Positions 1,583 through 64,000 of a stretch of DNA of 64,000 bases are shown here, piece by piece (the first letter of the stretch is position 1; each line of letters opens with the position of its first letter). Source of the stretch: Rhizaria sp. SCN 62-66 (lineage: Eukaryota); assembly GCA_001724265.1 (NCBI GenBank), contig MEDY01000004.1, positions 62,001-126,000 on the forward strand, given 5' to 3'. Made by a program: the position numbers and the translations under genes. The notes below the pieces were generated by a model, which ran no database searches, was not told the origin of the DNA, and was given only the letters and a program-made list of their open reading frames with translations.

Positions 1583-2142
1583 CGGGGTACTAAGGTGCGT
1601 CCCACCTAGGGGTGCGATTCAAGCAGTCAACTCACTGTGCAATGAAAATACCAAAACGACGATGAGAATGGCATTTGGCGTAATATAATTTATGAGTTAT
1701 AGTTAAAGTGTATATTTGATTTTGGTTTAGTTATACTGCGCGCATCTTGCGGACTTAACACCAGCATCTACCTATCCAAAGATTCGTGAAGTTCGTCCGC
1801 CACAACTCGACTCTTCGCTCTACGACCACATTTAAAGACATTATGAGCTGCGATGAAGGCGCTTGTATGTTGGATCGTGCCACTGTGCTGTAGTTGGTGT
1901 TAGTTGCCTGAATATGCGGGTTCCTACTTGCCTCGCTAAGCACAACGCACTACAGATACGGATGAAGATTTGTTGGTCTCGATGCCCCGCTTCTTAAGTC
2001 AAGTGCGCAGTCGCACTGCAGTGGCTTTAAATAATCATCAAGTGAACAAGCGTATGTATTCTAGTTTTATTATCTCATTAAATTCCATCGCCCACACTGT
2101 TTTTCTTCCTTTCACACGTTGCAGAAGCCTCGCAGCGTCTCG

Positions 2143-5100
2143 ATGCAGAGCTTCAGCCTCGTGACCTCGTTCACGACGGACCGGACGTGTTTCGTCACGT
2201 TCCCGCTCGCGTTCGTGCCGCTCGACGAGCTGGTCGCCGCGCAGCCGCAGCGCTCGAGCTGGGTGTTTCAGTTGACATGGCACACGGCCTCGGCCGCGGG
2301 CGGCGCCGAGCAGACGCATAGCGCGTACGTCGGCTGGCGCGGCGCTCGCACCAACGCGGCCCAGGAGGTCGTCGGCATCCCCGTGCGCCTCGCGGAGTGC
2401 CTCGGCGTCCCCAGCGGCGTGCGCGTGGCGATCTCGCTGTGCGCAGACGTGCTGCCGTCGCTGCACGTGGAGCTCGAGCCCGCGGGAGCGGACGACTACG
2501 AGGTGCTGGAGCTGAACCAGGCCTTCGTGATCGACCACCTGCTGGATCAGGTCGCGGTGCTGCAGCACGGAGCGCGATTCCCCGTCTACGTCCGCAACGC
2601 GCTCGTGCACCTCCGCGTTGTTGCTGACTGGCACGACAACGCCGCCGAGGGCTTTCGCGAGCGCGGCATTGTCACCCGCCGCACCGTGGCCTCCGGTGCT
2701 AACGGGGCCGGTGCGCGCCCCTTCTCGGTCATCGGGCCCGACTCCGAGCTCGCCATCGCCACCAAGCTGCGCCCTGCCGCGCCCTCCGCCGCCGCTTCGG
2801 ATGCCGCTGCTGGTGTTGCGGTAGCCGCGGAGCCCGCGCACGAGGCCGTGCTGCGCGTGCAGCCCTTCCCGCTCCCGCCGCCCCGCGCCGCCGCGCCCGG
2901 CGCGCTGACGCCCTCCAGCTCATCAGCATCATCCTCGCCCTTATCTTTGTCTGCGAACGCGCCGTCCGCGGTGGCCGAGGACGCGCCGTTTGAGGGCGTG
3001 GTGTGGCTTCACGCGGCCGAGCTCGCCGCCCTGCGCGCCCGCGACGGCGACCTCGCGCTGCTGCGCTACGCACCGCCCGCCGCCGCGCTCGCCGCCTCGC
3101 GCGCGCCCGCTGCCGACGCCGATGGGTCCCAGGACGGCGACGGCGACTATGACGACGACGGCGATGAGAGCAAGACAGAGCCCTTCTCGGGCCCTTGGGC
3201 ACCCGGCGCCGACCCCGCGAACCCCGCCTCCGCCGCCGCCGCCGCCGCTGCAGCCCGCGCCGGCGGCCCCGCGCCGCCCGCCGCGCTGGTGCGCGTGCGA
3301 AGCGCTCAGGCACTGCCCCCCACGCTGCGCGGCGGCCCCGCGGCGGGCCACGCTGTGCTGCCGCGCTGCCTGCGCGCCGCGCTGGGCGTCGCGGCGGGCG
3401 AGCGCGTGAGTCTCGCGCGCGCCGACCCCCGCGCGCTGCACGCCGCGCCCGCGCCCGCGGCTATCGCGCTCCGCCAGGTGCTGCCCGCGCCTGCCGAGCC
3501 CGCGCTGCGCCGCGCGCACGCCGCACGCGTGGCCGTGGCTTGGGACGCCGCCGCCATCGCCGCGAGCGAGTCCGCCGGTGCGCAGGTACTAGGCTACCCC
3601 GCCGCCGCGGCCTCGGCCGCCACCGCCGCGGGCGCCGGCGCGGCGTGGGTGGCCCCCGACGAGCTGCTCGCGTCGGTCATCGCCTGGCTGGCCTCGGGCG
3701 CCGCCGCCGCACCGCTGCCCGTGGCCGCGGGCGTCGCCGCGCCCGGCGCGCTCGTGCGCGTGCCACTCCTGCGCCGCCCCGCGCCCGGCGCGCCGCTGCA
3801 GCGCTGCGGCGCGCTCGTGACTGTTGCGCTCACGCCGCTGCTTGCGGGCGACGCGCCGGAGCTCTCCGCGGCCGCCGCCGCAGCCGCGACGGCCGCTGAG
3901 GGCGCGCGCCCGCTGGTGGCAGCGGCCGAGGCGAGTGCGCGCTACGCGGCGACGGCTGCGCAGCGCGCCGAGGCCGCGGCGGCGCTGGGCCCGCAGGTCG
4001 CGTTCCTGGCCTCGGCGTCGGCCTGCGCGGGACCCGCGGGCGCGCACGGTGTGTGTCCGCGCCAGCTCGCTCTCTCCCGCTCGCCCGGTGCGGTGGCGGC
4101 CGCGCCCGCCGCGGCGGCGTGGGTGGCGCCCACCTCGGCGCTGCGGCCCGTCGCGGTTCCCGTGTGCGCGCACTGCGCCAGCGACAGCGGCAGCGCCAAT
4201 AGCACGTGCGGGTTGACCTACGCCGCGCTGCCCGCCGCGCTGGGCGGCGTGGTGCCGCTACTGACCTGCGCGCCGCTGCTCGCGCCCGCGCGGCCCGTTG
4301 ACGGTGCGCTCGCCGTGCGCTGGGACGCCGCCGCCGAGCGCGCGGTGCTTGCCCCGCTGCCGCTGTCGGCCGAGGCGCTGGCCGCGCTCGGCGGCGTTGC
4401 GCCCGCGCTTGCCGCGCTCGCCGCCGAGTGCGCCCGCGCGCGCGCCGCGGGCGGGTTCGCCGTCGCGCTGGTGACGGGCGCGGCAACGGCGGGTAAGTCG
4501 TCGCTGCTTGCGCGGCTGGCGCTGGCCGTGCAGTCCCCGGCGCTGCGGATGCTGCGCACGGCGTGGGTCGACTGCGCCGCGCTCGCCGGCCTGCGCGCGG
4601 CGGCCGTGCGCGCCGTGCTCTCCGCGGCTGTCGCGGCCGCGCAGGCCTCGGCGCCCGCGCTGCTGGTACTCGACGACTTGGACGCGCTGTGCCCGGCGCC
4701 CGTGCAGGCCGAGGGCGGCGCCGGCGGGGACCCAGGGCAGGCGCTCGCGCAGGCCGCCGTGGCCGCCATCGTGCGCGATGTGCTCGAGCGCGCCGCCGCC
4801 GCGGCTGCGGCGGGCGCGGGGCAGCTGGCCGTGGTTGCGACGGCCACCGCTGTCACGCGCCTCGCTCCTGCGCTGCGCCAGACGGGGCTCTTCGCCGACG
4901 CCACCGTGGCGCTCAAGCCGCCCGCGCTCGAAGCGCGCGGCGAGATCATCGCGGCGGCCGTGGCGGCGCTGGCGCGCGACGAGGGCGCGGCCGTGGCGCT
5001 GCCGCGCGCGCTGGCGGTGCGGCTGGCGCAGGACACCGAAGGCCACTCGCCGCAGGACATTGCGCAGCTGCTGCACCGCGCCCTTCACGCAGCACTCGCG

Positions 5101-6270: not shown

Positions 6271-7378
6271 CCGAGTGACACGCTCGGTGACGGAGAACTG
6301 TGTGTACCAGCGATTCCAAGGACTTCTGAGTTTGCGAGGTTACAATTACGGTCAGGATTTGACACGCGTAAATTGGTGTGTCAACAGCTTTGGGAGGTCG
6401 AGTGTATTTTTAAGTGTTTGTTACTCAGTATATTTTTGTCTATTTATCATAGAGTCCCTCGATAATGTGCTCGTTGTCATAGTATGCATTTTGCAGTCTG
6501 GCTGAAAGTGCGCCAGCTCACTTTCGCTCACTTAAATCAGCATTTCGCTGTTTTTAAACGTTACTAAATCGTAATATATGGATTCAATGCATTATAACAA
6601 AAGGATGATGCGTCTTTCGCATTGAACAATTGACTAAACAACTGATTATTACGAAAATATCGTGTCTGTTTGCATGTTTTTGTATTCTTCGCCACTACAC
6701 ACGTGCTGCAGTCAAAAAAGAGAAATAAAACTGTATTATGTGGTGCAAATGCACCAGTCAGGCGGTATAAAGCATTTTTCGGTTTAGCACAAGTGTGATC
6801 GCCTCTGGGATAAATGGCGGACATTTCCAGGTGAATGTTAGTTGTTTTATCATAATGGTGCTTTTTCGCACCTCTAAACAACGTAGTTGTGCAACTCAAC
6901 TGGAATTCACGACTTTGCCGCAACCCTCGAGTCGTTGGGGTTGCACGCAAAATATGACGTTTAGCTGTGCACATGTGTTCAATCCTTTGTGCGACTATAC
7001 TGTGGCAACGGAATGACTACTCAACTGTCTGAATTGCAACATAGCGCGGTCGGGCATGTGTAGAACATCGTCTTCTGCGACATCTTGAAGTTTGGGTGCG
7101 ATTTGACTGAGGTTGGTGCAGTTCAAATCTAACACAGTTCAGCTTGGGCGTATTGTGAATACTTTCGATCTAACAGAGATGCGCGAAAGTGCTATCATTT
7201 GTGTCGAGCTGGCGTGGAGTGGAGATGGTAGTTTTAACATTTGATCTTTCCCAGACTGTATATTTGCTGTGATTTTAACCTCCAAAGTCGACATCGTAAC
7301 CGTACCCCTCTGACCCTCCACCCTTCTTTTCTTTCTTCGCGTTGACGATCGATGCCTCCCTAGATCAAACAATCAACC

Positions 7379-8811
7379 ATGCTTCGCTCCCGCGTCTTTT
7401 CTGCCGTGACCAAGTCTTCGACTTCGAGTCTTTGCAAGCCCGCGCTCTCGCTCTTCAAGGCCCCTGCGGTCTCGGCGCGCGTGCCCAAGATGGCCACCAC
7501 CACTCGCCCCTCCTCTTTCTTCTCGACCACCGTCGCCGCTGGTGCCGTGCCGCCCGTCGCTCCTGCGGCCGTGGACAAGATCGTGTCCGCGACCAAGGCC
7601 AACGGCAGCCGCGCTTACGACTGGATTGACGCCGAGGCTGAGACGCTCATCGCCAAGGTCCGGATCTTGTCTTGCCTCCGTTTCATATCTTCTCTCCTCG
7701 TTCAACGTAACGCCCCACTCCACGTTCTCTCCTTCCTCGTCCGAACAAGACTTCCTATCACTTATTGTCCAAACCACTCTCTCCTCTATCTCTTGTTTGT
7801 TCAATCACTGTCCACTCACTTCTTCCCAACCGCTCTCCTTGGTTCCTCGCCTTTGCCGTCGCCTCTGTCCTCCTCCCACCCAGACCTACGCCCTCCACAA
7901 CCCCGAGAGCGTTCACCTCTTCCCTCGCCGCCCCGTGACCAACGAGGAGCTCGAGGCCGTCGGCGCGCCCGTCCACTTCCCCCCCAAGTCCCCTCTCGAC
8001 TACCTCGCCTACGGCACCATGCGCTTCCTCCGCATCTTCACTGTACGTTACTCGCGCCCTTCATCTCATTAGCTCATTAGCGAACTGACAAGACAGATAT
8101 GCCTTCGTGTGTGTGGTGTTTTATATCTTGAATGTCTTCCTGATGTCGTCGCGCGCACTTGCCCTGTCTCACGTCTTTTCAACCTCTTATTTTATGTTAC
8201 ACTCTTCACTCGCACTCGCACGCACTCGCACGCAGCACATGTTCTTCCGCGAGAAGTACGACCACCACGCCGTGGTGCTCGAGACCGTGGCCGCGGTGCC
8301 CGGCGTTGTGGCGGCCGCGTTCCGCCACCTGCGCGCGCTGCGCCGCATGGCCCCCGACCACGGCTGGATCCCCGCGCTGCAGGAGGAGGCCGAGAACGAG
8401 CGCATGCACCTGCTCATCTTCCTCCAGCTCACCAAGCCCTCGGGCCTGGAGCGCTTCCTCGTCATGCTCGCGCAGGGCGGCTACCTGGCCTTCTACGCCG
8501 CGCTCTACACCTTCTCGGCGCAGTCCGCGCACCGCATGGTAGGCTACCTGGAGGAGGAGGCGCACCTCGCCTACACGGCCTACCTGGCCGCCATCGACTC
8601 CGGCGCGCTCGAGAACAAGCCCGCGCCCGAGATCGCCAAGAAGTACTACGGCCTGCCCGCTGATGCGCGTCTGCGCGACGTCGTGCTGCGCGTGCGCGCC
8701 GACGAGTGCACGCACCGCGATTTCAACCACATGCTCGCCAACAAGGTCCGCGACAACGATACCAGCTCGCCCCCCTTCTTCATGGGCCAGGCCCCCGCCG
8801 CCCACATGTAA
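7379..8811 (+). CDS. AOX: Mitochondrial alternative oxidase (3 exons)
   Basis: Exons 7379-7657, 7884-8042, 8236-8811 join in frame across GT-AG introns. Di-iron motifs LETVAAVPG, EEAENERMHL, GYLEEEA, RADECTH. Arg/Ser/Lys-rich, acid-poor N-terminus resembles a mitochondrial presequence. Stop TAA. Confidence 0.95.
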
Positions 8812-15204: not shown

Positions 15205-15700
15205 AGCTTGCCGGTGTAGAACGCCCTCTTCACAAAGGAGTCAAAGTCAAGGTTCACGTGCCACGGTGAGCACGTTGATAAAAGAATCGCTATTAAAATC
15301 GACTGGGCAAACAATAAATGGGCTCTAAGTACTAGCTAGCGGACGACATAACGAGGTCCAGCATGTGATTTGGCTGGCTCCAGTCAGACGCCCAAGTGAC
15401 CGTGGGCGAGCTGCCCAGCCGACGCGGCCTGATTTTTGTCGACAGTCTCAAGACAGACACGCGCGTCGATCTTTGAAGTTAGACATCCACACGCAGAAAA
15501 TGCTTTGAGCTGCAGTATAGTGATATAATCTGTAACGCAGTGACTCCTAAATCACCACTTTTTAATGCATGCAATCGGCTTTGTTTAGCACGTGATATGG
15601 CGGGCTTCCTCCGGGTGAGCTCCAAAGAAGTGTTTGTGGTTTCTTCTTAATCCGCGTTTCACTGTCCCTCGTATCACTTGTATTTATAGAAACTAACAGC

Positions 15701-16559
15701 ATGTCTGGTAAGACTGAGTGGGAGGACGCCCTCATTGCGGTACGTTAATGCTTAGTGACTCGTTTTTGCCCATGTTCGTGAACTGAAGAGTCATCTGACC
15801 AAACCGGACCGTTGTTGCCAAGCAGCGCTCACTCCTTTACGCACCAACGTACGTCTGTCCCTTTGCCCCCACTTTTAGCACGGTATCATGGCGCCCCCGG
15901 AGGAAAAGCCTACTGAGGATGACATCATCGAGGAGACGCAGGACATCATGGACGAGATGGACGTGATGAACCCGCTCCACAAGTACGAGGGCAAGACTCT
16001 GGACCAGCTCAAGGAGCTCGAGGACGACATCGAGGAGGACGCCATGGCCGTGCTGCGCCGCCGTCGCGTGCAGATGCTCAAGGAGCAAGCCGCGCGCAAC
16101 AAGTACGGCCAGGTCATCAACATCCACGAGCCCGAGTGGAAGGCCGAGGTGACTGAGGCCGGCGACGTGTGGGTCGTCGTCAACCTCTGGGCCGCGGGCC
16201 GCCAGGAGTGCACGCTGATCGACAACATCATGCGCCAGCTCGCAAACAAGTTCCGCGACGTCAAGTTCGTCCGCATTGAGGGCCGCCAAGCGATCAAGAA
16301 CTTCCCCGACTCCAAGTGTCCGACGATGATCGTGTACAACAAGGGCGATGTGAAGCTCCAGCTGGTCGGTCTGCCCGAGCTGGGCGGCCCCAAGGCCAGC
16401 GCCAACTCGCTCGAGTGGGTGCTCTCTAAGATCGGCGCCGTCAAGACCGAGCTCACCGAGGACCCCGCACTGGAGGAGCAGCGCATGCGCATCAATCGCC
16501 TCGACAAGGCGCGCTCCAAGTTCGAGGACGATGGCGATGATGACTGGCTCAGCAAGTAA
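15701..16559 (+). CDS. PDCL3: Phosducin-like protein 2/3 (PhLP2, CCT co-chaperone), 2 exons
   Basis: Exon 15701-15739 (MSGKTEWEDALIA), GTACGT...TAG intron, exon 15879-16559 (HGIMAPP...). Thioredoxin-like part: EVTEAGDVWVVVNL, LANKFRDVKFVRI, IKNFPDSKCPTMIVY, LEWVLSKIGAV. Stop TAA. Confidence 0.92.
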
Positions 16560-16885
16560 GCGAGACGCGACAGCGGAAGACTACGAACTTCATTTATCAC
16601 TGTAACAACACACTTATCAAGGACTTTACGCCACACATTTGTACAGACAGCGGCTTTTGATGTCGTCCAGCTACATTAGTTATACACTTTTTGCTTTTAT
16701 TCGTTCACTACCTCATGAATTGTTCACTTATGGTAGTCAGCAATCTCTAACGGCTCGATGTTGCACAAACTTGATCGAACGAATTTGCCGTGTTTAGTCG
16801 ATATTTTTAAACTACAACGTATGTCTACGACTGTAACAAAACTAGTCTTTATTGTCCCTCAATTATATTCCTTGCAAACAGAACG

Positions 16886-19197
16886 ATGGACGCCTCAGGC
16901 AATCTTGACCTGGCGCTCTATCACCTGAAGGCTTCAGCTGCCAAGGTACGGACAAACCACCGTCTACAGAGTTCATGTTAGACCCGATTGTCAATTTCTG
17001 CATCTCTTGGATACTAACATATTGTTTCATAGTGTTATTTTGTGTAGGCTAAGCAAATTGGGATTGCTATGGGACACACAGTGCAGGAGTGGCCCCACCT
17101 ACATCCACTGCTGCAAATCCACTCGCAGTTTGCGATCGTCCCCACATCACGCGTGCAGAGCATTCGCAATCGGTACGCACCATCACGCAATAAGCCTGCT
17201 TTAGTTATCTGATTATTTTATTTGCCGTTTCTTTGACCCGTTTGTCCTTGTTTACCTCGAAACTTCTCTCACTCCCCTTTCCCACTCTCTCCTCTGACAA
17301 CGTTGACACAACGCGAACGTATAGTCTGCGCGAGGAGCAAGACAAGGCTCTCCGTGGGCTTGCCGACGCGGCGCAAGTCTTTTTGTCACGGCTGGAGCAG
17401 TCCGCGACACAGGTGCACGAGCGCTACAGCGACGTGCTGCGTGAGCTAGAGACGCAGATGGCCTCCGCCTTCGACGGGATCCACGCCGAAGAGACCGCTC
17501 AGCTCGACGCACTCGCCCGCGAGGTACGACACAGGAAGCCAGTTGTATACTCGCAATGTCACGTTTTAACATCGCGTTCTAGCTTCCATTCTCGTCCGCA
17601 CTTTTCATAACTCGACCCTTTGTTGTTCCTCACACAACCCTTTACGCGCATGCAGACGGGCTCACTGGAGGCCGAGGCCGGCCGGCTTGACGCGGCACTG
17701 AGCGCTGCCGTGAGCGTGTCCGCCGCGCTCTCCGAGGACATCGCCGCGCAGGCCACCGTTTCGCTGTCCAACGATAGTGGTAATGGCAGCTCTGGCGACG
17801 GCGCTGCGAGCGGCACGACGCTCGCGCTGTCTGCGGACCTGGTGGCGGCACAGGAGCTCGACAACGCGCAGGCCGCCGCGGACGTGCGCGCGCTGCAGAC
17901 CGCGGCCAAGGAGCTGCAGATGGAGCTCTCGGACGTGCGCCTGCTGCTCGAGCACGCGCGCGTCTTCCACGGTGGCGTACAGAGTGCGCGCGCGGACGCA
18001 GAGATGGACTCTGACGCAGAGGACAACGCCGGCGACAGGATGCGCGCAGCACGCGAGAAAGATTATGGTGATTTTGCTGTGGTGCGCCGTAAGGGTCGCG
18101 GGCGCAAGTCAGTTGTGCACGCATTCGCGCAGCTGCAGCGCGCACACGGTGGCGCTGGTGTTGCGCGCGACCTGCTGCCCACTGCCGCCGCCTCGGCCTC
18201 CGCTGCAGCGGGCGACTCCAGCGAAGACGACGGTGACAATGCGCAGGAGTGCGGCCCGCGCGGCAAGCGCGCGCGCGGTGCTGACGCGGCTGCTGATGCA
18301 GCGGTCCCCGCGAGTGCGACAGTGGAGGAGCTAGCTGCGCTGCGCGCTGAGGCGGCCGAGCTTGAGGCCGAGGCCAACCAGGCCGCCGCGGAGCTCTACC
18401 TTCTCGAGCCCGCGCTTGCGGCCGCGGATTCTGCGGCCAGCGCGAAGACTGGCAGCGCCGTGGCTACGCCCGCACGCGGCGCTCGGCCCAGTGCGCTCGA
18501 CGCCAGCACGGCCTCGCCGCTGCCGCTGGACTCGAGCCTGCTGGCGGGCATCGCGCCGCTGCTGCGCACCGCGCGCAAGGCGCCCGCGACCGTCGGCCGC
18601 GCGGAGCGTCGTGTGCTGGCGCAAGCGCGCCTAGGCCGTGAGGCTGCGGAGCGCGCGCTTGAGGACGTGCTGCAGCAGCGGCTAGCCGCAGGCGCCGAGG
18701 CCGACGCTGCTGTCGCGCGCGCGGCCGCGCTCGGCCGCGCCGCAGCCAGCACGGTCGCCGTGGCCGTCGGGGCCGGCGCGGGCACGCGCATGCGTGGCAT
18801 GACTGAGCGCGTGCTGCGCTGGCTGCTGGCGCTGCCCGGCGACGTCGATGACGGCAGTGTCGCCGAGGGTGCCCAGTCTGCGGCTGAGGCCAGCAATGCA
18901 GCGCGCGCGGCGGCGAAGGCAGCGCTGGCAGCGCGCTTGGCTCCCGTGGCGAGTCTCCGCGCCGCGTGCGGCGTAGTCGTTGACGTCACTGCGGGCCTTA
19001 GTGCCGCAGGCCGGCCCTTTGCGTTGATTAACCAGCCGGTGCAGCAGGCGGCCGCAGCGGCGTCGGCGGGCGCAGAGAGCACGGACGAAGCTGCGTTCAC
19101 TGCGGCCCTCGACGTGCTCGCGCGCGCTGGCGTGGTGCGTTGGGATCGCGATGCGGACACAGTCGCGCTTGCCCTCCCACTCCAGACCGCCACTTGA
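16886..19197 (+). CDS. Hypothetical coiled-coil protein, 4 exons
   Basis: Exons 16886-16945, 17048-17172, 17325-17523, 17656-19197 join in frame via three GTACG...YAG introns. Heptad-like Glu/Leu/Ala segments. Stop TGA. No family recognised. Confidence 0.75.
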
Positions 19198-29080: not shown

Positions 29081-29803
29081 ACAAGAGTGAAGAAAGACAA
29101 GTTCTTGCAAACACCAACTGGCCAATCTTCTTAATGAAAACTGGTGTCAGTCAGAGACGCTTGCTGGAAAGCAGGAGGATAAGAGGCAAACGCAGAAAGC
29201 AAGATGAGTCACCATAACCAAAGCCGAGAGTCATTAGAGAAAATTCGCCTGTAGAGGTACAGAACGCAGGAAACCCAATTCATGAAGTTGAAACTGAATA
29301 CAAAACTACAAGTTTTGTTGGCATAGGAAGAAATAAAAGCAAAAACGAGCATCTCAGTACAGAACCTGCAGCCAAAGGAGCATGAGGGATCGAGAAGACA
29401 ACGAGGCTCGAGAGCCATGATTCGGACAAGATACCAGGGCCACAGGAGCTTGTGTTACAATATGCCAAAAACATGTTAGACACAATAAAACGTGAATGTC
29501 AACAAACATCTTGTATATCGTCATAACATCGTCCCAAACACGCATAACCATGACTTTCGGATCCGATGTCGCCCGTGCATCATCAGCATTGCTACAGCAA
29601 AACATTTTTCGACCCCGTCGGCAGTGTCACTTACGACAACTTTGAGAGCGCATATCAGTGCCGTGATGGTGGGAACATGTTAAAATCTTTGTATATGTTA
29701 CTATTCATACAGAAGAAAAACGTGTGGTGTGGTACTATTTAATCAGAAACTTAACTTTGTAGTCGTATCTGCGCCGCCCGAAGAGTCGTGTCACTGGGTG
29801 TAA

Positions 29804-31036: not shown

Positions 31037-31703
31037 GCTCGCCAACGTGACCTGTTTACAGAAGGTCGGATTGAGTTGATGATGTTGAGGTGGCAGTGAA
31101 AATTGTGAGTCAGATATGACATGGTTCCCAAGCGCGCGTTTAAATATCACGGGAGAAGAATATACAAAACAAAGAATTGTATCCGCTCATCTCTCCTTAT
31201 AAACTTGATACGCAGTATCTCACTGGGTTTCGTCATTGCAAACTTGCACGCGCCCCAGGATTTGAGAGGCCGTTTTTCGACCATAACTCGGGTGGCCAGC
31301 CCGAATTCCTCTCATTTCGTCGGCATGTGTGCTATTTTACGTGCTTCAACTTAGACATTGCTATACTTCTTGTACCCGCTATTGAATTGCAATAAAAATA
31401 ACGATAATTTGTATTTCAAAGTGCCTAGACCCTGATAAACCTTTCAAGGATTCACTCATAGCGGTCACAATCGAGTTACAATTGTTACTCAGCAGTGATT
31501 AAGCAGCGCATCAGCTTGAACTGTCATGGGCGATGTCTGAGAGTGATCGACGTCCTTCCGGAACGCAACAATAGTCCGCTGGCCAATTGATACAGAGAAA
31601 TAATAGCAAAATTCGACACGTAACAAGCCAGATCACTGTTCTACACGTTTGGTTTCGTCTCACGTCAACATATCATGTTGCAGATGTCATCACGGCTTAC
31701 TCC

Positions 31704-39015: not shown

Positions 39016-40193
39016 CCTTATAACTAAAGTTCTCTCTCTCATACAGCAATAAAACAAAAGAATAAAACAGTAAAATCACAAAACATGCCGTAGATGAGTT
39101 GCTCAACTTGTAATTACCTTCGAAAACGTCTCTTTTCTCGCGATATCAAATCACTTTAAGTTTCCAATCGATCTCTTCAAGTCGAGCTTTCAATGCTTTG
39201 GTGGCAGACAGCATGCAGATTGACATGCCACGTTGTCGCTGACTGCGAACAACTTAAAATAAAAAAATACTACAAATTTTACGTGTTTTAACATGAGTGG
39301 TTATTGTGATTCACATAAGGAACGCATGCTTCTCGATATTGCTTGCCGAGCATAATGAAGCAATATCTGTCGCACACAACAGTGTCCTTGGAGGTAAAGT
39401 TCTTAAATGATAAGAATCTGTATTTGTCGATGACTCGTGGCGAGTAGAAGGAGACACATAAACAAACAACAAACAAACAGAAAAAAAGTGAAGCACTGAT
39501 ATGCAATGTAACGTCGCAGTATTGGGCGCGCGTTGGCTCTCTAACCATAGTTGGAAGTATGAAGTGAGCGGAGTCACAGTCAAATATAGCTGTGACAATG
39601 AGCGCTGATATAAAGATTACAAAATACACAAGAAAACACGACAACACAACGCTGCGATACCATAGTGAGGATGATCGGCTGACAACTATGATCAAAAAGA
39701 ATGACGCAGATAGAACTGATGACCACCAGAGTTGATTTAATGGTGCAGGTGGCATAAAGGAAATACAAAACCAAATAGAAGAAAAAAAATGAGAATATGT
39801 AATTTTTTAAATGAAAAAATGTAAATCAAAAATGTAAAATTCCGTGCTTATAGTAATGAAAAAAATACTCGGATGAGACTAGTCGGAGAAGGAAACGACT
39901 GTAGGATTAACGACCATTGTTACGGTCGCGACGGCACACTCAATCTCTCAACCAAACTCGTTCGATGAGAGATCGGAGAAAGAGAAAGATAAAAACTCGA
40001 AGATAAGCTCTCTAGCCTTGCTCAAGGATTTGCTAGCTCATAAACTCGCGAACTTGCGTACGTATCCACCGCCAGCAGTCACATGCGTCCTCGCGCTGTG
40101 CGCGCCAAGGCTGTCGCGCGCGCATTCGCCCTGCCGCACGTTCACTGGCTCTCGGAGTTGACGTGTGGCGCTCTCAGCTCGATCGCGTTGCAA

Positions 40194-42188: not shown

Positions 42189-42858
42189 GCTGGGGGTCTG
42201 TTTGTTCGTGTAGGGAAAAGTCGGGCGAAGAGGAGTGTCGTGAGGATAATGAGGAATAGGGAATTGATACGCAAGATATGTGGGAGACGTGGTCTAGCAT
42301 TATGATATAGAGATAGTATGCAGTTCGTGATGCATCTTTAAGAGCCGCAAGGCGTGGGAAAAGTGCTCGTCACCAGCATGTCGCGAAGCACGTTGTCTTG
42401 AATTGACAAGTCGCAACAGCAACGTAAAATGTGGGGCACAGCGAGGTCAAACGCGGGCAATAGATACACCTAATAAGGAACTTTGCATTGATATCAGTTA
42501 CAACGCATGAATGAAGTAGCTATACCGCAATAATCGAGTCACCGCAAAAAAGGAAGAGCGACTGAGCGACGTCGTCCGAAATTTTACTTTCATCACTCGC
42601 GACACTTCGAAAGTGCAGCCAGTCGGCATATTAAGAAATGAGCAAAATAAAACTCGTATACACGTTAAAACTCGAAGCAGTACGCCCGGGAAAATGCAAT
42701 TGGGATGTTTTATTAAAGAAAAGAGAATCTGGCTCGGGTAAGCCTTCCTGGCCCTCCCCACAGTCGTTGGAGTGTGACGCAAATAGCATCAATTGAAAAA
42801 AAGTGCGCGACAGCAAGCTATTATCGCGTGCCGCGCAGTCTCATTAAGAGCTACGTGT

Positions 42859-44169
42859 TCACAGACGCGCCTTGGCGTGGATCTTCTTGTCGATGACGTC
42901 GGGCACAAGCGGGCGCAGATAACTATGCGAAAATGTGGATATATCAAGTGCAAAGTAAATGTGAGCAAGAAAGTAACGGATTCGGATAGGACGAGCGTGT
43001 TTACAGAAATAACGGAGGTGTTGTCGGGTATGTACGTACCTAGCAACGGTGGAGGTCCAGGGGAAAAAGGCCTTGCGGAGCCGGCGGTCCGTGGCGTCGA
43101 CGACGCAGGACGCGCAGTCCTCCACGGTCATGGCCTTGTCGTCGGCGGGGGTCTCTGTGAGGCGCGGGAACAAATGAAGCAAGAGGGTACACAGGGCACA
43201 TAAGCGAAATAGACTCGAAAACAATTAAAAACAATGAAATAAAAGGCAATAATAACGATTCATAAGCTAATAAAACATCAAAATTGGAAAACAACTCTCA
43301 AGACAATGCAATAAAGGGGTGACATCATCGTAGTAGATGTGACTGTACGTACCGGTCTTGAGCTTCGCGTCGGTGGTGAGCGAGTTGGTCCGCAGCGCCG
43401 TGTTGGTGGTGGGCGGGCACACAAGTACGATGTCGAAGGCGGGCGCGCCGCCCAGCTCGAGCATCTCGGCCCGCAGCGCCTCGAGGAAGCCCGTGACGGC
43501 GAACTTGCTCGCACAGTAGGCCGAGCGGTACGGCAGCCCCACCTCGCCACTGAAGGACGTGATCGCCGTCAGCACGCCGCGCGACTTAACCAAGTGCGCA
43601 AAGGCGGCGTGCGTGCAGTAGAGGTACCCGTAGAAGTTGACGTCCATGCACTTGCGGAAGATGGCCAAGTCCTCTGTGCGCGCGAAGACGTTGTGGGCGC
43701 CGATGCCCGCACACAGCAGTAGCACGTCGATGCGGCCGAAGCGCGTCACGCCCAGGTCTACAAAGCGCTGGCAGTCGGCCTGCTTGGTGACGTCGGTGAC
43801 AACGCCGAGCACGTCCTCATCCGCGGCGTGCAGGAACGCGTCGCGCGCCTCAGCCGAGAGAGCCGCGCCGGAGCGCAGCGACGACAGCGCCGACGGGTCC
43901 GGCTGGGGCTTGCGCGCCTCGGCGAGGATCTTGCGGCACTCGTCGACGGCCTCGACAAGCCCGGCGGCGTTGAAGTCACAGAGCACGAGCTTGGCGCCGC
44001 GCGCAGCGTAGGTGCGCGCGACCTGGCGGGCAATGCCCGAGGCCCCGCCCGTGATAAGCACCACGGTGCCAGGCACGAAGTCGGCCGTGCGCTCCCAGAA
44101 AAACAGGTTGCGCACGTGCGCGCTCTTCTTCGTGCTCAGCGGGAACAGCGAGGCAGGAGGGGTCGACAT
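42859..44169 (-). CDS. Short-chain dehydrogenase/reductase (DHRS7B-like) with C-terminal PTS1 (-ARL), 3 exons
   Basis: Exons 44169-43353, 43154-43040, 42922-42859 join in frame (GTACGT donors). TGGASGIA, GRIDVLLLCAG, MDVNFYG, catalytic YCASK. Ends ...KKIHAKARL, stop TGA. Confidence 0.9.
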
Positions 44170-44660
44170 ACAGGAGGTGTCTGGAGACGTGCGCGGTCGC
44201 GAAGAATGAAGCAAGAAAATATCGGGGTTGAGATTCGGTGACGAGAAGAAGCAAAGGAAGCATTCAGCGATCAGCAAGAAGACCCTCTTGGAATAATAAA
44301 GAGAAAGTACAATTGGCATCTATTCGTATCAGTATCTGCTGAACAAAACTCTATAGACGGTGGCTGGCCAAAGTTATGTTCCGTTAAAGTTGCCTCCTCG
44401 TGCCGCTTCTTGGCTTTGTTGTCCACGATCATGGAGCAAGTTTCGATTGCATTCTCTTTAAAACAATGTCTGTATCGGCGAGATTACGCACTGCATCACT
44501 AATTTTGCTATGTATCCAAAATTTACTTTGTTATCTATCGCATATAAACTTGAAGATCACGACCTGGGTCAAGTATGTCGCGGTATACTTCTTCGTCACA
44601 CATCTCTCAGCATCACCAATGAGCCCTACAAGACCTTAATAGTCTAGCACTGACACAAGC

Positions 44661-46752
44661 TCACATACCAAGCGACGCGCGCATGTTTTGCAGCGCCTCC
44701 AGCGCCTCTGTGTCGCCCGCGGTGCGTTCCATCTCCTCCACTGCAGTCAGCCGCGCCAGGCCCAGCTCTGTATGTGGTGGTTAAAGCAGGAATACCAAAG
44801 TGTAAAATGCAGCCAAAAATGAGTGATGTGAGAAATATATCTATAGTGCGATTCGTTTCATAACTAAAAAAAATAGGCTTTCAAGATTGATTATTCTTTT
44901 ACGTACCGCGCCAGTCCTTATGCGAGTTGGCGACGCTGAAAGCCTTGACCCAGCCCGCGACGACTGCGCGCGAAGCGTCGTTCAGTGCAGCGCCAGCCGC
45001 ATTATCTGCCGCAGCAGCCTCAGAGGCGGCATCAGCCTCCGCAGCGTTGGCCTCGAAGACGCGCGCCAGCGAGAGCAGGTACGCCGACAGCGGGATCAGC
45101 TCACGGTCCTACGAACGTTAGTTGAAAAAAGTACATAAAAGCCGTATATGTTAGTGAAATCAGGATAAATTTGAAAAACCAAAATAAAACGTAATGAATC
45201 ATAATATATTGTAGATTCAAAACGCGACTCAATCATTTTAATGAATTTCTTGTCTTGTTGAGCATCCTATCGCACACATACACTCCTGCCGCGCGAAGAC
45301 AGCGCGCGCTTGAAGGGCTCAATCTGCAGCCCTGCGGCCGGGTTCATCGCGAAGTTGCGCGCCAGGTCATCGACGTGCACGGTGTTGTGCGGGCCCCAGC
45401 GCGCCTGCGGCAGCGCGCGCCACAGCAGCTCGAGCGCCTTGACCTGGTGCCGGCGGGTGCGGCCCGCGACGGAGCCCTGGACGGAGAACATCGTGGAGCG
45501 GTCCATAACAACCGTGAGCGCAAAGCGCGGGTGCGACAGCAGCCCCAGCGCGCCCAGCTTGAGCTCCAGAGAGCGCGCGGAGGACTGTGACCAGATGCAC
45601 AGGTCGTAGCGGCGGTACGCGAGCGCCAAGAACTCGAGAGTCAGCGGACGACGCAGAGACGGCATGTCGGCGCGCTCTGTGAGGCAAGCAAGAAAGCAAA
45701 TATGACAGCGAAGTGATGTGTGAGAAAACCAATGATGAATATATCCCTGCTCCCGGTAACTCAACTTCATAAACAACGCAGCTGTCTTCGAGCTGTCACG
45801 TACCGGTTTTCATGTCGAAGAGCGTGTAGTCGAGGTCGAGCACAAGCAGCGGGAACCCGCGGCGCGGCGCGCGCAGCAGCGTCACGCCGCTGTCCGCGTG
45901 CAACCCCTGCGCAAAGCGGTCCGCGTGCAGCGCGGGCGCCGCCTGCGTCGGCTCCTACAGCGCGGTGGCGTGCGGCGAGTCGAGCAGCCCGGTCTGCAGA
46001 CGGGTCAGAGTGGCCTCGAGCGCGGCGCGCGTGTGCAGGCACGTCTGGAGCCGCAGCAGATCCTCGTCGGCAAAGCTAGGGTAGACGTAGTCGGGCGCGT
46101 TCTCGTCCAGGTCGTTGACGACGCTGGCGCTAACCTCGCCGACCACGCGCTCCGCCGCGGGGGTCCCGATCAGCAGCGCGCGCACCGGTGCGGAAGACCG
46201 GGCCGCGTCCACCACCGGCGCCGCGGGCCGCGGGGCGGCGGGCGACGTGGGCGTCGCGCCCTCGGCCTCGTCCGCGTCGGTGGCTGCGACAGCGACTTTC
46301 GTCGCGGTCTCGAGCTCAGCCTCTGATGCAGCGGCCGTGGCGGCTGCGGCGGCCTCAGCGTCTGCGGCTGCAAGCGTCTCGGCGGAGCACTGCGCGGCTG
46401 CGGTGCCAACAACCTGGCCGACGAGTGTGGCGTCGGTGGCGGGCTTGCCGCCGATCTGCTTGATGTTGAGCAGCTTCTGCGCCGCGACGTCCACGCCCGT
46501 GCGATCCTCCAGACTGAGCTTGACGGACTCGAGCGTCGCCGAGGCAGGCACGTGCACCATAAACGTGTTCGAGCGCCACTTAACCGCAAACTGAAGTGAC
46601 ACATGGGCAAGAGGACGAAGGAAAGAGTGAGAATTGAACGAGCAGGAGAAACGGAGGACATGGAAGTTGGGAGCGGGAACAAGCGTACGTACCTCGATGA
46701 AGACCTCGGACGCGTTGGACGCGTTCGCGAGGGGAACAGACTCGGTAGACAT
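44661..46752 (-). CDS. UBLCP1: Ubiquitin-like domain-containing CTD phosphatase 1, 5 exons, with an in-frame TAG at 45955-45957
   Basis: Exons 46752-46693, 46590-45804, 45676-45282, 45108-44907, 44767-44661. UBL domain FAVKWRSNTF...TGVDVAAQKLLNIK; LLIGTP; VVNDLD; HAD motif LLVLDLDYTLFD; RPLTLEFLALAYRRYDLCIWS; VKALELLW; NTVHVDDLARNFAMNPAAGLQIEPFK; DRELIPLSAYL. Final stop TGA. Confidence 0.9.
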
Positions 46753-47239
46753 TGGTTTTAAGAGAACGATTCCCAGATAGCGAAGTGAAAACTGGTCACA
46801 AAGCTGTTATCACGTAGTCTGAGGTGATTTTCTGAGAAAGGTAAAGGTCAAGTCGCAGATTCAAAAGAGTTGATCAGAAAATACAGAATTTACAATGAAT
46901 ATCGAGTTAAAACTAGTATAATTTTCGGAGAATTTAAAATGGCGTTTTTAGTATATATATTCTCGCGAGAATCTCGTAATGGCGATCATTTGAGCGATAT
47001 CAATGTCATTTCATGGAAGCAGAAGAGCAGAAAAATGGCTCGTGGTGAAATGAGTTTGGACTTGAAATATTTTGATCGCCTAAAAGTATTTTTGAAAATA
47101 CGACAAATACTAGGAAAAAAAGGCTATGTATTGAGATTAAGGCAAAATTAGATATTAAAAGCTAAGTAACAAAACTGGAAAAAGGATCCCTTAAACACAA
47201 AAGCATCAGTAATAACATGCGTCTCGCACACTGTTGCGC

Positions 47240-50329: not shown

Positions 50330-50632
50330 TTTCAGCGTGGTCTCTTCTTCCTACAGAGTTTAATATTAATGGTAGAAAGAAATCGTAGAATTATTATAGA
50401 TACAGGTAACATGGCTTCAACGACAAAGTTAACTGCTCGCGCGGCTAATTTTTGAGAGCCGCCATGACGCACTCTACCAACTCAGCACAGGCTTCGCGCC
50501 CTTTCACAACCTATGAAATGATGATAGTATGGCATAATTTCATCGTCACCAGACTTATTATTGCTATCTCCGCAAACTCTCACGACTTTTCTTCATTAAT
50601 TTCTTTTTGTACACTCCAGCTCTTCGTCTATC

Positions 50633-51914
50633 ATGGGTGTTAAGGGTACGTTTACATATACTGCTTGCGTTGCTCTGCCTCGTTTTTGTCGCTTCTGTAC
50701 CCCTTCGCTTTCACTCATTGAGACATCTTTGCCGAGCATCTTACTCACCCGCCACATGTATTTTTGCCACTTATGTACTCTCTGCAGGTCTTATGCGCTT
50801 CATCAGCGAGCGCGCGCCTGGCGCGGTGCGCGAGTACGACATCGCCAACTACTTCGGCCGCCGCATCGCGATCGACGCGAGTACGTGCCTGTACCAGTTC
50901 CTGGTCGCCATCCGCTCCGGCGCCGACGGCCAGAACATGGCGTCCGAGGACGGCGAGGCGACGTCGCACCTGATCGGCTTGTTTTACCGCACGCTGCGCA
51001 TGCTGGACCACGGCATCAAGCCCGTGTACGTGTTCGACGGCAAGCCGCCGGAGCTCAAGGGCGGCGAGCTGGCCAAGCGCCGCGAGCGCCGCCAGGCCGC
51101 CGAGGAGTCGCTCAAGGAAGCCAAGGACTCGGGCGACGCGGACGACGTGCAGAAGTTTGAGCGCCGCCTGGTGCGCGTGAGTCCCGAGCAGAACGCCGAG
51201 GCGAAGCGTCTGCTCAAGCTCATGGGCGTGCCGTACGTCGAGGCGCCCGGAGAGGCCGAGGCGACCTGCGCGGCCCTCGCGCGCGCGGGCGCGGTGTACG
51301 GCGCCGGCACGGAGGACATGGACGCGCTGCCGTTCGGCGCGACGAAGCTCATCCGCAACCTCACGGTGTCTGCGAACAAGGAGGCCGCGATCGTCGAGGT
51401 GGACCTGGACAAGGTGCTCGAGGGGCTGGAGCTCACCATGGAGCAGTTCATCGACATGTGCGTGCTCTTCGGCTGCGACTACACGTCGACGATCCGCGGC
51501 ATCGGCCCGCAGAAGGCGTACGAGATGATCAAGCAGCATGGCTCCACGGCGGCGGGCCTCAAGGAGCTCAATCGCGAGAAGTACCCCGTCCCCGAGGACT
51601 TCATGCCGGAAGCCGCGGCGGAGCTGTTCCGCAACGCTGAGGTCGCCGACGCCGCCGAGCTCGACCTTAAGGCGCGCGAGCCCGACGAGGAGGGACTCAT
51701 TGCGTTCCTGTGCGGCGAGAAGGGCTTCCAGGAGCCTCGCGTGCGCGCCGGACTGGCGCGGCTGACCAAGGCCAAGTCCAAGGGCACGCAGCAGCGGCTG
51801 GAGAACTTCTTCTCCATCATCCCCAAGTCCCCCACCGCCAACGCCAACGCCAAGACCGGGCAGACCAAGCGTCCTGCCGACAAGAAGGGCGCTGCCGCCA
51901 CCAAGAAGAAGTAA
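50633..51914 (+). CDS. FEN1: Flap endonuclease 1, 2 exons
   Basis: Exon 50633-50645 (MGVKG), GTACGT...CAG intron, exon 50788-51914. YFGRRIAIDAS, TSHLIGLFYRT, PVYVFDGKPP, EAPGEAEATCA, TEDMDALPFG, GCDY, PIP box QQRLENFF, basic tail. Stop TAA. Confidence 0.97.
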
Positions 51915-59405: not shown

Positions 59406-59456
<51 letters not shown>

Positions 59457-60605: not shown

Positions 60606-61630
60606 GAGAACGAGAGGTGCGTGCGGGCGAGTGGGCCGTTAAGGCACAACTACTGCTCCTGAGCGCGTGGCTCTGACGCGAGAAGTGGCGGGCGAGACTG
60701 TGCGCGCGGAAACAAAGTCATGAGAGCGTAGACAAATAATATGTTAAGGTTGAGTGCGGTGTTGAGATGAAGAATGGTTATCAGAGGACGGTGACGATCG
60801 CATCGGCTCGAATTCATTGATGATATTTGCCAGGCCACAAGTGATGACGTGCTCGCGTGCTTATAAGCGGAAGCGTTTCGAGGGGCTTAGCAAACGTGTT
60901 CAGAAAGTACGCGATGCAGTTTAGCAATAAACAAGTTTACCGCAGACGTACACGAAGAGTTCTTGCCGAGTTGCCTTAGCGTGTGACGCTAGCGGCTGGG
61001 AAGGTTCCGACCCGAGGAGGGTAAGGACGTGAAGGGCTGTTAAGGAAACGCCTCAAACGTGCCTATAGAGACATAATACCAGCGCACAAGTGGTTAAATA
61101 CAGTAAAAGATAAGTTTTAATGGCCCATTAATGGTAAACCCAGCACGTGGCCAGAGTTATGAGGATTACAGCAGCGGGAATCCGTGCAGAGAAGAAAAGA
61201 GATGAGAGGCAGTCGACGCCTAACAAAGTCGCCTTTTCCCTATGAGGATTACAACACTGTAATGACCACTGTTTGCAGTGAGAATTAAATATGGTTTCAA
61301 ACACCCACGTGGCTAACCCAGGAACACAAAATGTGGACTATACCTTGTTCCTCTTGGTCATGACACGCGTAGATTGGGAGCAGACGATGCTCCCCATTTT
61401 ATCACAAATGGGAGCCTTCGACGATCGTTTTTCGCGGGCAACCTTGAACTCAACATCATGCGCTGTATTGTCCAAGATATGATTATACTATATGTTCATA
61501 AGATTTTTAGTTTACATTTTAACATTATATTTCAATTTAAGATCATTCAGATTGTATTTTTGTTCACAATAGCTCACTTCAAACCCTCTCCTGTCATATT
61601 GTTTCGCTCAGACCCGCTGAAGCCGGGAAC

Positions 61631-61927: not shown

Positions 61928-62745
61928 GCTGTGTCAGTTGCCGTGCGTTCACGGCTTCTGCTGCTTTGCTGACTCACGTATCAGTCGGCGTCTTGTGCGC
62001 GCGCCTCTGGTTTTTCCCATGTTTGTGGCATGTACGGCCACGCGTATGCGCATGTTGCTTAGCACGATTTTGCGTTTGGAGGCTTACAGTGATCATTGTG
62101 TTTCGTTTGGCCATCTTATACTCTCGTGACTTCTGGACCGAAACGCAGGTTCAGTTCAAATAGCAATCCAACATGGATATAAGAAGGTCTTGCAATGACT
62201 TAAGCATATGTATCAGTACATATCCTATATCTGGGATACTTGTGCGCAGACACAATAACTAAATTAAGCTTATTTATGCGCGTATATCCCCGGTTTTACG
62301 TTCATTTTTTCTCTGACGAAGGAGGGCCCGATCGCGTGCGTACGGTTTAGACGGGAGCCTGGACAATTTCGATCATCTATTTAAAAAACAATACACTGCT
62401 GTCTTATTTATTTTAAGTTGAGTTAGTTGAATCGAGTTCGTTCTTGGTCAGATATCGCGTCTTTTGTGCCACTTCTAGAGTCCATTTTTCGACCCCGGCT
62501 TGACTTTTTCCTTCGGGCTCCTAGCCAGGCCGACCGAGTGCTCGCTCCGTGTCGACCCCGCAAGTTTCGCGGCACTCCTCGGTTCGCTATATTTTACTCG
62601 CCTTAAGTGGGAATTTCTTTACTTTAGAGCAGTCGGCGTGTTTTTCTACATAGATCACTTTTCATTTTCCCGACATCGCTCACTTTGCCCTCAACTTTAT
62701 CCACTTTGCGCGCCCGGCCTTCTCTCCCGAATAGTTTCCTGGCAG

Positions 62746-64000
62746 ATGTCCAAGAACAAGACCCGCGTCGCGATTAACGCTGTCGCCGGTAAGGCGAACA
62801 CCAAGGAGAAGGTTTCCAGTGGCCAGGCCTCCGTCGGTATCGACTTCGGCACCACCAAGATCTCCATCGCGGCCTACAAGCCCGACATTGGCGTCTTCGA
62901 CATTATCGTCAACGAGGATGGTGAGCGCGCCACTCCTTGCTACGTTGGTTTCACCAACACCGAGCGTGTCATTGGTACCCCTGCCAAGACTGCCGTCTCC
63001 CGTAACGTCGAGAACACTATCCACTCGTTCCGTGATGCCCTCAACTCCTCCTTCGGCGCCCTCCCCGCCGCGCAGAAGTCCTACGGTGTGTCCGTGCGCC
63101 CCGACGAGAATGACCGCACCGTCTACGAGGTCAAGTTTAAGGCCGAGGCCACGATGGTGACCCCCGACGAGCTCATCCAGGCCCTCTTTGAGCGCGTCAA
63201 GGCGCACGCCGACGGCTACTGGGATGAGGACGTCAAGAACCTCGTCCTCTCCGTGCCCTCCACCTTCTCCGCCGAGGCCCGCGAGGCCATGACCGCGTGC
63301 GCCAACAAGGCCGGCTTCGCCGTCACCGCCGTGCTCGCCGAGCCCCTCGCCGCCGCCATTTCCTTCGGCCTCGATGACGAGACCGCGGCTGATGCTGCCA
63401 TGAAGAAGAACATCCTCGTCGTCGACGTCGGTTCCTACTCGACCACCTTCTCCGTGCTCTCATCCCAGCACGGCCTGCTGTCACTCATCGACACCGACTG
63501 CACCCAGGAGATCGGCGCTACCCACGTCGACGCCCAGCTCTTCACGCACTTCTCCAAGGTCTTCACCACAAAGTTCCAGCTCGACCTCTCCGAGTCCAAG
63601 CGCGCCACCACGCGTCTGCTGCAGGCCTGCGAGGGCGTCAAGAAGTCCCTGTCGTCCATGCCCGCCGCGTCGGTCAAGCTCGACTCGCTGTTCGAGGGCC
63701 AGGACCTCTTCGCTGACGTCACCCGCGCGCGCATGGAGATGATGTGCGACTCGCTCTTCCGTTCCCTCCACAACGCGCTCGTCGCCTTCTTCAAGCGCCC
63801 CCACAACGTCCGCGCCTCGGCCATCACCCACATCGTGCTCGCCGGTGGCGGCGCCGCGCTGCCCCGCACCCAGGCCGTCATCGAGAACTTTTTCGCCGAG
63901 CAGACCGGCGCCTTCACGGCCACCGTGCTCAAGCAGACGCACCCCTCCGAGGCCGCCGTGTTCGGCTGCGCCAAGCAGGCCTCGCTGCTCGCCGGTGTCC
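62746..64000 (+). CDS. HSPA14: Atypical Hsp70 of the Ssz1/HSPA14 (ribosome-associated complex) type, partial
   Basis: My own translation from ATG 62746 stays open to the window end: VGIDFGTTKI, IVNEDGERATPCYVGF, VLSVPSTF, LAEPLAAAISFGL, ILVVDVGSYST, LDSLFEGQD, VTRARMEMMC, IVLAGG, PSEAAVFGCAKQASL. The divergent ATP-site motifs fit the Ssz1/HSPA14 subfamily rather than canonical Hsp70. Confidence 0.8.
   Translation, partial: MSKNKTRVAINAVAGKANTKEKVSSGQASVGIDFGTTKISIAAYKPDIGVFDIIVNEDGERATPCYVGFTNTERVIGTPAKTAVSRNVENTIHSFRDALNSSFGALPAAQKSYGVSVRPDENDRTVYEVKFKAEATMVTPDELIQALFERVKAHADGYWDEDVKNLVLSVPSTFSAEAREAMTACANKAGFAVTAVLAEPLAAAISFGLDDETAADAAMKKNILVVDVGSYSTTFSVLSSQHGLLSLIDTDCTQEIGATHVDAQLFTHFSKVFTTKFQLDLSESKRATTRLLQACEGVKKSLSSMPAASVKLDSLFEGQDLFADVTRARMEMMCDSLFRSLHNALVAFFKRPHNVRASAITHIVLAGGGAALPRTQAVIENFFAEQTGAFTATVLKQTHPSEAAVFGCAKQASLLAGV

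Follow-up and report, generated by a model that had tools for sequence, protein, structure and literature searches.

Just upstream of the start codon, most genes in a 64,000-nucleotide (nt) stretch of contig MEDY01000004.1 (positions 62,001 to 126,000, assembly GCA_001724265.1, Rhizaria sp. SCN 62-66; the whole stretch is referred to here as the window) have a pyrimidine-rich sequence that ends in YAG and looks like the 3′ end of an intron. The question is whether these YAG triplets are splice acceptors, as they would be if a spliced leader (SL) were added in trans to most mRNAs, or belong to something else. A sequence-only reading of the window had listed 15 such sites and proposed either SL trans-splicing or introns in nearly every 5′ untranslated region (5′-UTR). 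The pyrimidine-rich stretch ending in YAG just before most start codons is confirmed here by counts and controls. Taken together, the sites resemble the 3′ ends of the organism's own introns only in part and do not show their strict splice-site signature. The signal most likely reflects how the core promoters and leaders of these genes are built rather than a splice site, a preference that we hold tentatively; from the sequence alone one cannot tell such a design from leader trans-splicing.

A YAG triplet lies 5–24 nt before most start codons

The analysis was based on a curated set of 19 genes with start codons. Open reading frames (ORFs) of low GC content and non-coding appearance were left out (6564-6974, a 20-codon ORF at 7083, 39288-39755 and a minus-strand region at 52xxx), and an ORF labelled ‘ubiquitin’ was counted together with the phosphatase exons that follow it as a single gene (UBL-phosphatase). 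For the SDR and UBL-phosphatase genes the 3′ ends were placed only roughly and served solely as spacer limits. Negative numbers give the distance upstream of the ATG. All 15 YAG triplets listed by the sequence-only reading are present (for PhLP2 and HSPA14 the number quoted was that of the first base of the triplet), and these are called the claimed sites below.

When every gene was scored objectively, with no picking of sites, a YAG with its G at −5 to −24 was found in 15 of 19, as compared with 3–9 of 19 in each of 14 other 20-nt sense intervals out to −304 (pooled rate 0.335; binomial P=6e-5). The enrichment over shuffled spacers that the sequence-only reading had asked for is also there: shuffling the same 22 nt gave a mean of 8.0 genes (P=0.0006) and shuffling −80 to −5 gave 6.8 (P=0.0002). 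Control counts were 3–11 of 19 in antisense intervals and 5–9 of 17 in 3′ flanks. Among the eight Y-R-N triplets only YAG is enriched near the ATG (15 genes versus 8.0 expected); YAA (6 genes), YAT (3), YGA (5) and YGG (5) are at or under expectation, and YAC, YGC and YGT were found in 10, 10 and 12 genes respectively. Immediately upstream, the interval −25 to −44 is 68% pyrimidine and has four AG dinucleotides against a distal mean of 17.8. It should be noted that part of the AG excess near the ATG arises because seven of the 19 genes have a Kozak-like AG at −3 to −1 (AGC ATG, AGG ATG or CAG ATG; for example 15698-15699, 31038-31039, 42190-42191 and 62744-62745). A stricter definition of an acceptor was satisfied by seven of the 19 genes and by only six of 11 real introns, and a test based on the ends of maximal pyrimidine tracts did not discriminate.

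The upstream regions of the 19 genes are as follows.

1583..1666, minus strand: gene 1; CTCAT 1666-1662, TAG 1608-1606 (−24), TAG ending at 1590 (−8), ATG at 1582
2074..2142, plus strand: PEX1; CTCAT 2074-2078, AG-free pyrimidine-rich stretch, CAG 2122-2124 (−19); GTATGT at 2052 lacks G at −1
7305..7378, plus strand: AOX; pyrimidine tract 7305-7338, TAG 7361-7363 (−16), no CTCA at −90 to −46
15205..15270, minus strand: MIF4G-domain gene; CTCAC 15270-15266, first AG downstream is AAG (−24), no YAG at −5 to −24; not a claimed site
15640..15700, plus strand: phosducin-like gene (PhLP2); tract −61 to −31, TAG 15687-15689, CAG 15697-15699; GTGAGC at 15615 is a possible non-consensus donor
16846..16885, plus strand: 16886 gene; tract −40 to −13, CAG 16879-16881 (−5); GTATGT at 16819 lacks G at −1
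29081..29164, minus strand: UFD2-like gene; YAGs only at −38 and −84, none at −5 to −24; not a claimed site
31037..31109, minus strand: 31036 gene; CTCAC 31109-31105, 54 nt AG-free, CAG 31054-31052 (−16)
33087..33128, minus strand: PAE; tract −42 to −10, CAG 33096-33094 (−8), upstream ATG at −32 within the tract
34573..34624, plus strand: kaptin gene (KPTN); CTCAT 34573-34577, CAG 34599-34601 (−24)
39016..39098, minus strand: ‘reeler-like’ gene; CTCAT 39098-39094, AG-rich run, TAG 39026-39024 (−9); the weakest claimed site
42189..42253, minus strand: purple acid phosphatase (PAP); CTCAT 42253-42249, CTCAC 42244-42240, 43 nt AG-free, CAG 42200-42198 (−10)
44170..44260, minus strand: SDR; 60-nt pyrimidine tract, CTCAA 44232-44228, CAG 44183-44181 (−12)
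46753..46836, minus strand: UBL-phosphatase gene; YAGs at −80, −67, −52 and −40, then 40 nt pyrimidine-rich and AG-free up to the ATG; not a claimed site
50330..50382, minus strand: S2P (peptidase M50); TAG 50353-50351 (−22)
50579..50632, plus strand: FEN1; CTCAC 50579-50583, 37 nt AG-free, CAG 50617-50619 (−14); GTATGG at 50527 lacks G at −1
60606..60698, minus strand: DUF2608 gene; YAGs from −93 to −45, then 45 nt pyrimidine-rich and AG-free up to the ATG; GTACGT at 60951 lacks G at −1; not a claimed site
61573..61630, plus strand: 98-codon gene (‘PIG-Y’); CTCAC 61573-61577, 35 nt AG-free, CAG 61609-61611 (−20)
62679..62745, plus strand: Hsp70-like gene (HSPA14); CTCAC 62679-62683, 52 nt AG-free, TAG 62732-62734 (−12), CAG 62743-62745 (−1)

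The reeler-like site is poor, its upstream sequence being AG-rich, and an in-frame ATG lies 27 nt upstream.

The claimed sites lack the full signature of real acceptors

The reference set comprised the 11 curated introns within coding sequences (CDS) listed here; GTACG sites at 50236 and 40061 were excluded as lying in an open frame or past a stop codon.

8043..8235, plus strand: AOX intron; GTACGT...CTCAC...CGCAG
15740..15878, plus strand: intron of the phosducin-like gene
16946..17047, plus strand: first intron of the 16886 gene; CTAAC branch-like motif
17173..17324, plus strand: second intron of the 16886 gene
17524..17655, plus strand: third intron of the 16886 gene
50646..50787, plus strand: FEN1 intron, after codon 5
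46591..46692, minus strand: intron of the UBL-phosphatase gene; RNA joint in run X2
45677..45803, minus strand: intron of the UBL-phosphatase gene
44768..44906, minus strand: intron of the UBL-phosphatase gene; RNA joints in runs X2 and X3
43155..43352, minus strand: first SDR intron
42923..43039, minus strand: second SDR intron

The sequence-only reading had noted that internal introns nearly always begin with GTACG, and this is true of all 11, the donor being preceded by G in ten. CTCAC lies 15–72 nt ahead of the acceptor in nine, the acceptor is YRYAG in nine, and the last 36 nt are AG-free in ten (one AG in total versus 9.4 expected from composition). A literature search on GTACGT donors yielded nothing useful.

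That the upstream tracts look like the 3′ ends of these introns, as had been proposed, is borne out for their composition (the 36 nt before the claimed AGs have a pyrimidine fraction of 0.68 versus 0.69 before real acceptors) and in that 11 of the 15 are AG-free over 36 nt, but not for the motifs that define the real acceptors. Eight of the claimed sites have CTCA(C/T) or CTAAC upstream. An exact CTCAC at 15–72 nt is found for 5/15 claimed sites versus 9/11 real introns (P=0.021), YRYAG for 4/15 versus 9/11 (P=0.015) and the two together for 0/15 versus 7/11 (P=0.0005), P values that flatter these features because they were noticed and tested in one small set of introns. Of background YAGs 33/101 are YRYAG, so that the claimed sites do no better. 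Nor is AG excluded from the claimed sites as a group beyond what composition predicts (10 AG versus 12.4 expected, four of the ten being contributed by the reeler-like site).

A CTCA motif and a putative pyrimidine-rich leader

CTCA occurs at −90 to −46 in 13 of the 19 genes (3.2 expected, P=7.5e-7) and is the most position-specific of the 256 4-mers, being found in 1–4 of 19 genes in six other 45-nt bins and in 0–4 of 19 on the antisense strand. It is thus a short motif of the Y-Y-C-A-Y kind that is strand- and position-specific within about 100 nt of the ATG. Spacers (25,888 nt) contain 24 copies of CTCAC, six of which lie 49–70 nt before an ATG in the sense orientation; the first AG after these six is 35–54 nt on, whereas for the other 18 the median is about 17 nt. 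Two roles are conceivable for CTCA, that of a branch site within an outron and that of an initiator where transcription starts.

Pyrimidine richness is specific to the sense strand out to −145 (pyrimidine fraction 0.57–0.68 versus 0.41 antisense), well past any distance between branch and acceptor. ATG is depleted at −90 to −1 (eight versus 15.8 in shuffles, P=0.011) but not at −180 to −91 (32 versus 28.5), a pattern that a scanned leader of about 60–90 nt would give, although the depletion is weaker when only the 60 nt upstream of the claimed AGs are counted (see below).

Two upstream ATGs deserve separate mention. In AOX (7352-7363, plus strand) a 3-codon ORF begins with an ATG at −27 and terminates in the claimed TAG, and in PAE (33118-33086, minus strand) an ATG at −32 opens an ORF ending in a TGA that overlaps the main ATG. 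If the YAGs were acceptors or start sites, neither of these upstream ATGs would be left in the mRNA.

RNA contigs and the search for an SL RNA gene

RNA evidence was drawn from four of the five runs that contain parts of the window, aligned to 31001-51000; these are assembled contigs of thin cover, which cannot show RNA starts, and every library is of the activated-sludge or wastewater kind. X2 and X3, although labelled as probably DNA, behave as RNA because they have spliced joints and skip spacers, whereas X4 covers spacers and genes evenly, like DNA. Among the joints listed, the only credible ones are those of two CDS introns, 44768-44906 (X2 and X3) and 46591-46692 (X2), which leaves two of the 11 reference introns with RNA support. 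Among the contig pieces listed, none bridges any of the eight claimed AGs in 31001-51000, which with such thin cover says nothing either way. Two contig ends near claimed sites are not usable as evidence: an X3 contig (38722-39019) ends 4 nt before it would reach the reeler-like exon boundary and has no loose end, and an X1 contig that covers 42135 has its end 82 letters away.

The 64-kb window has no Rfam match and no convincing SL RNA-like locus, a weak test since it covers one window only. A tRNA scan of the window was empty, and no repeated short unit was found in it beyond GC-rich coding sequence of low complexity. One lookalike in the 3′ flank of the 98-codon gene (62032-62085, plus strand) has GTACGG followed 37 nt later by a U-rich GATTTTGC, which superficially resembles an SL donor with an Sm site; it was rejected, being single-copy and folding no better than shuffles (61996-62110, z=+1.0).

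Promoter and leader design versus splicing

If the upstream signal is the promoter and leader of these genes, transcription would start at or near the initiator-like CTCA(C/T), 46–90 nt before the ATG, and the mRNA would then be colinear through a pyrimidine-rich, G-poor leader that turns more purine-rich around the start codon, the YAG marking the end of the pyrimidine-rich part. As a variant, the start site might be the Y-A step itself, after the pyrimidine patch, which would give very short leaders. Such a design accounts for the CTCA motif, the sense pyrimidine bias out to −145, the weak acceptor consensus and the two genes, UBL-phosphatase and DUF2608, in which 40–45 nt of AG-free pyrimidine-rich sequence run to the ATG. 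Motifs, positions, strand specificity and missing donors are all observed; we infer where transcripts would begin and that they would not be spliced.

Several observations weigh against a promoter and leader design. It does not explain why YAG alone is in excess near the ATG, whereas a 3′ splice site predicts both a YAG excess and AG depletion; AG is in fact the most depleted dinucleotide at −25 to −44, about twofold beyond AA, GA and GG. The order of elements, CTCA(C) then an AG-poor pyrimidine stretch then YAG, matches that of the real introns, the spacing from CTCAC to the first AG in six genes (35–54 nt) falls within that of the real introns (24–63 nt) and the composition upstream of the claimed AGs is the same. 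No TATA-like peak was found upstream of CTCA. In the 60 nt upstream of the claimed AGs the deficit of ATG is not significant (five versus 9.2, P=0.08) and is no different from that in real introns. Finally, the CTCAC and YRYAG features on which the claimed sites fall short were first noticed in the same 11 introns that were used to test them.

Of the other explanations, that of chance, in which YAG is simply common and the sequence-only reading picked the copies that follow pyrimidines, is the least credible. Pyrimidine-rich spacer does often yield acceptor-like sites (eight in about 1 kb on the minus strand at 51915-52836) and 19 genes are a small sample, but the unpicked count of 15/19 against the pooled rate, the local shuffles and the negative antisense and 3′-flank controls make it hard to believe. 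That most genes have an ordinary cis-spliced 5′-UTR intron, its donor and first exon lying farther upstream, is also improbable, if less so. Introns of this window do crowd the 5′ ends of genes (four genes have one no more than 60 nt from the ATG) and candidate pairs can be drawn for PEX1 (2052-2124), the 16886 gene (16819-16881), FEN1 (50527-50619), the phosducin-like gene (15615-15689) and the DUF2608 gene (60951 to about 60698). However, real donors are GTACG in 11/11 and follow G in 10/11, whereas the candidates are GTATG or GTGAG or lack G at −1. The two GTATGT sequences that had been singled out as exceptions, at 2052 (PEX1) and 16819 (16886 gene), are both present but have neither G at −1 nor C at +4; G at −1 is missing from all eight GTAYG candidates inspected, four of which (these two included) also lack C at +4, and GTGAGC at 15615, although a G precedes it, does not match the GTACG donor. 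Upstream of genes the sense strand has no surplus of GTAYG (17 in 14,292 nt, 1.19/kb) over other spacer strands (15 in 11,596 nt, 1.29/kb), which leaves room for a few donors at most and not for 15. For these two reasons the acceptor-like sites are, as the sequence-only reading held, unpaired, and its option of near-universal 5′-UTR introns with weaker donors is disfavoured: with no excess of donors, no consensus G|GTACG and no paired donors found, such introns are unlikely as a general feature, and a few individual ones are possible. (As the reverse complement of CTCAC is GTGAG, a CTCAC in a head-to-head gene pair makes a donor-like site on the partner strand, for example at 50583 on the minus strand, upstream of S2P.)

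The more serious competitor is SL trans-splicing, which we consider possible but on balance doubtful. CTCA(C/T) would then be the branch region and the first YAG 5–24 nt before the ATG the acceptor, the outron would be discarded and a separate SL RNA, with GTACG as its donor, would supply the mRNA with a short capped leader. This would account for the whole ordered pattern of CTCA, AG-poor pyrimidine stretch and YAG, together with the missing donors: a YAG-specific signal at −5 to −24 in 15/19 genes follows an AG-poor stretch of 68% pyrimidine, the composition is that of real intron ends, 11/15 sites are AG-free for 36 nt, the acceptors are unpaired with no excess of donors upstream and six genes have an exact CTCAC set unusually far ahead of the first AG. 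Trans-splicing has moreover had repeated origins and can exist without operons, as in cryptomonads according to the available part of PMC5619915. Against it, no shared leader has been seen (among thin assembled contigs, none of those listed lying over a claimed AG), the window has no SL RNA gene (a weak test) and the combination of CTCAC and YRYAG is absent from all 15 sites and present in 7/11 introns, when an organism with such tight signals would be expected to share them with its trans-acceptors. The best protein matches are to opisthokonts and their neighbours, for which part of the tree the prior is low. We know of no SL trans-splicing among opisthokonts and their neighbours outside animals. 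The boldest form of this proposal, that a GC-rich, intron-poor eukaryote adds a leader to most of its mRNAs 5–24 nt before the ATG, using relaxed acceptors beside strict cis-intron signals (G|GTACG, CTCAC, YRYAG) and no operons, would imply an independent SL origin in a lineage with none known and is likewise to be doubted.

Relation to known systems

In nematodes, SL trans-splice acceptors at the ends of outrons lie ahead of start codons. Paulinella reportedly has SL trans-splicing too. The sites described here are like SL acceptors in that a YAG at the end of a pyrimidine-rich, AG-poor stretch precedes the ATG by anything from a few to some 25 nt, with no paired donor and in intronless genes too; they are unlike them in that neither a leader nor an SL RNA gene is seen in the window and in that they do not have the strict branch and acceptor consensus of their own cis-introns. 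The accessible text of PMC5619915 reports SL trans-splicing from euglenids, kinetoplastids, dinoflagellates, cercozoans, cryptomonads and many animal groups, and from Guillardia without operons, with which the absence of operon-like gene packing in the window agrees.

For the promoter and leader design the nearest parallel is the initiator of the oomycete Phytophthora infestans, YCAYTYY, which in the part of PMC3599244 available peaks 50–100 nt ahead of start codons and is biased towards the forward orientation, promoters without it having pyrimidine-rich regions near the start site. The window resembles the oomycete initiator (INR), with or without FPR, in its short, sense-specific Y-C-A-Y motif, its lack of a TATA signal and its pyrimidine-rich surroundings (PMC3599244, same part). 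It differs in that the motif is CTCA(C/T), only two of 13 copies fitting the full YCAYTYY by eye, and in that nothing in that portion of PMC3599244 corresponds to the YAG peak near the ATG. The plant Y Patch is a pyrimidine patch in the core promoter, as far as the accessible portions of PMC2094075 and PMC1832190 describe it, and is similarly direction-sensitive and near the gene start; it is described for plants, and its position relative to the start site is not comparable with positions counted, as here, from the ATG.

Should the sites prove to be trans-splice acceptors, the short list of protists with leader trans-splicing would gain a new and possibly deep-branching lineage, another operon-free case that bears on why this mode of splicing has evolved again and again. 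Otherwise the window would display how an unsampled eukaryote lays out its compact promoters and leaders (CTCA at about −60, then a pyrimidine-rich leader, with a YAG near the ATG), a layout that mimics intron 3′ ends well enough to mislead gene finders and human readers alike and is a warning for annotation made from sequence only.

Gene content and other features of the window

The window is eukaryotic, with long reading frames of 65–77% GC separated by spacers and interrupted by short introns of 35–45% GC. Pfam backs most of the gene names that had been assigned (PEX1, with a PEX-1N/AAA match, AOX, phosducin-like, UFD2-type, PAE, purple acid phosphatase, SDR, peptidase M50, FEN1 and Hsp70-like) and a protein atlas backs that of kaptin, but ‘reeler-like’ has no Pfam family match. 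The best named matches of FEN1 are from animals and early fungi (about 55% identity) and those of AOX from red algae (67–70%), ichthyosporeans (62–64%) and Thecamonas (56%); the search with the Hsp70-like protein gave 28 weak matches only. Neither these searches nor the atlas yielded a named relative that is close. A metagenome scan based on FEN1 found 16 loci, all so distant (26–61% identity) that their upstream regions are not comparable. When ten window proteins were queried against a collection of protein clusters, six were present, each in a cluster of one or two members, and the sole longer member, a PAE with 12 additional residues, reflects a TTG-start call colinear with the window and is uninformative.

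In the UBL-phosphatase gene (44650-46752, minus strand) the ubiquitin-like ORF (45955-46752) and the downstream exons, which have a phosphatase-type motif (DLDYTLFD), look like one gene of the UBLCP1 type. An in-frame TAG at 45955-45957 splits the ORF from the phosphatase exons, pointing to an unrecognised intron or a frame change there. Past the stop codon of the DUF2608 gene, the minus strand of the spacer 51915-53006 is T-rich for about 700 nt and includes an intron-like GTATGT...CAG (52899-52836); this spacer could represent a long 3′ UTR or a non-coding transcript that is not annotated. Inside the MIF4G-domain gene, a run of 9-nt repeats at 13339-13600 (CTTCTTGTC-like on the plus strand) codes for a Lys/Asp-rich repeat and forms a low-GC island within the CDS.

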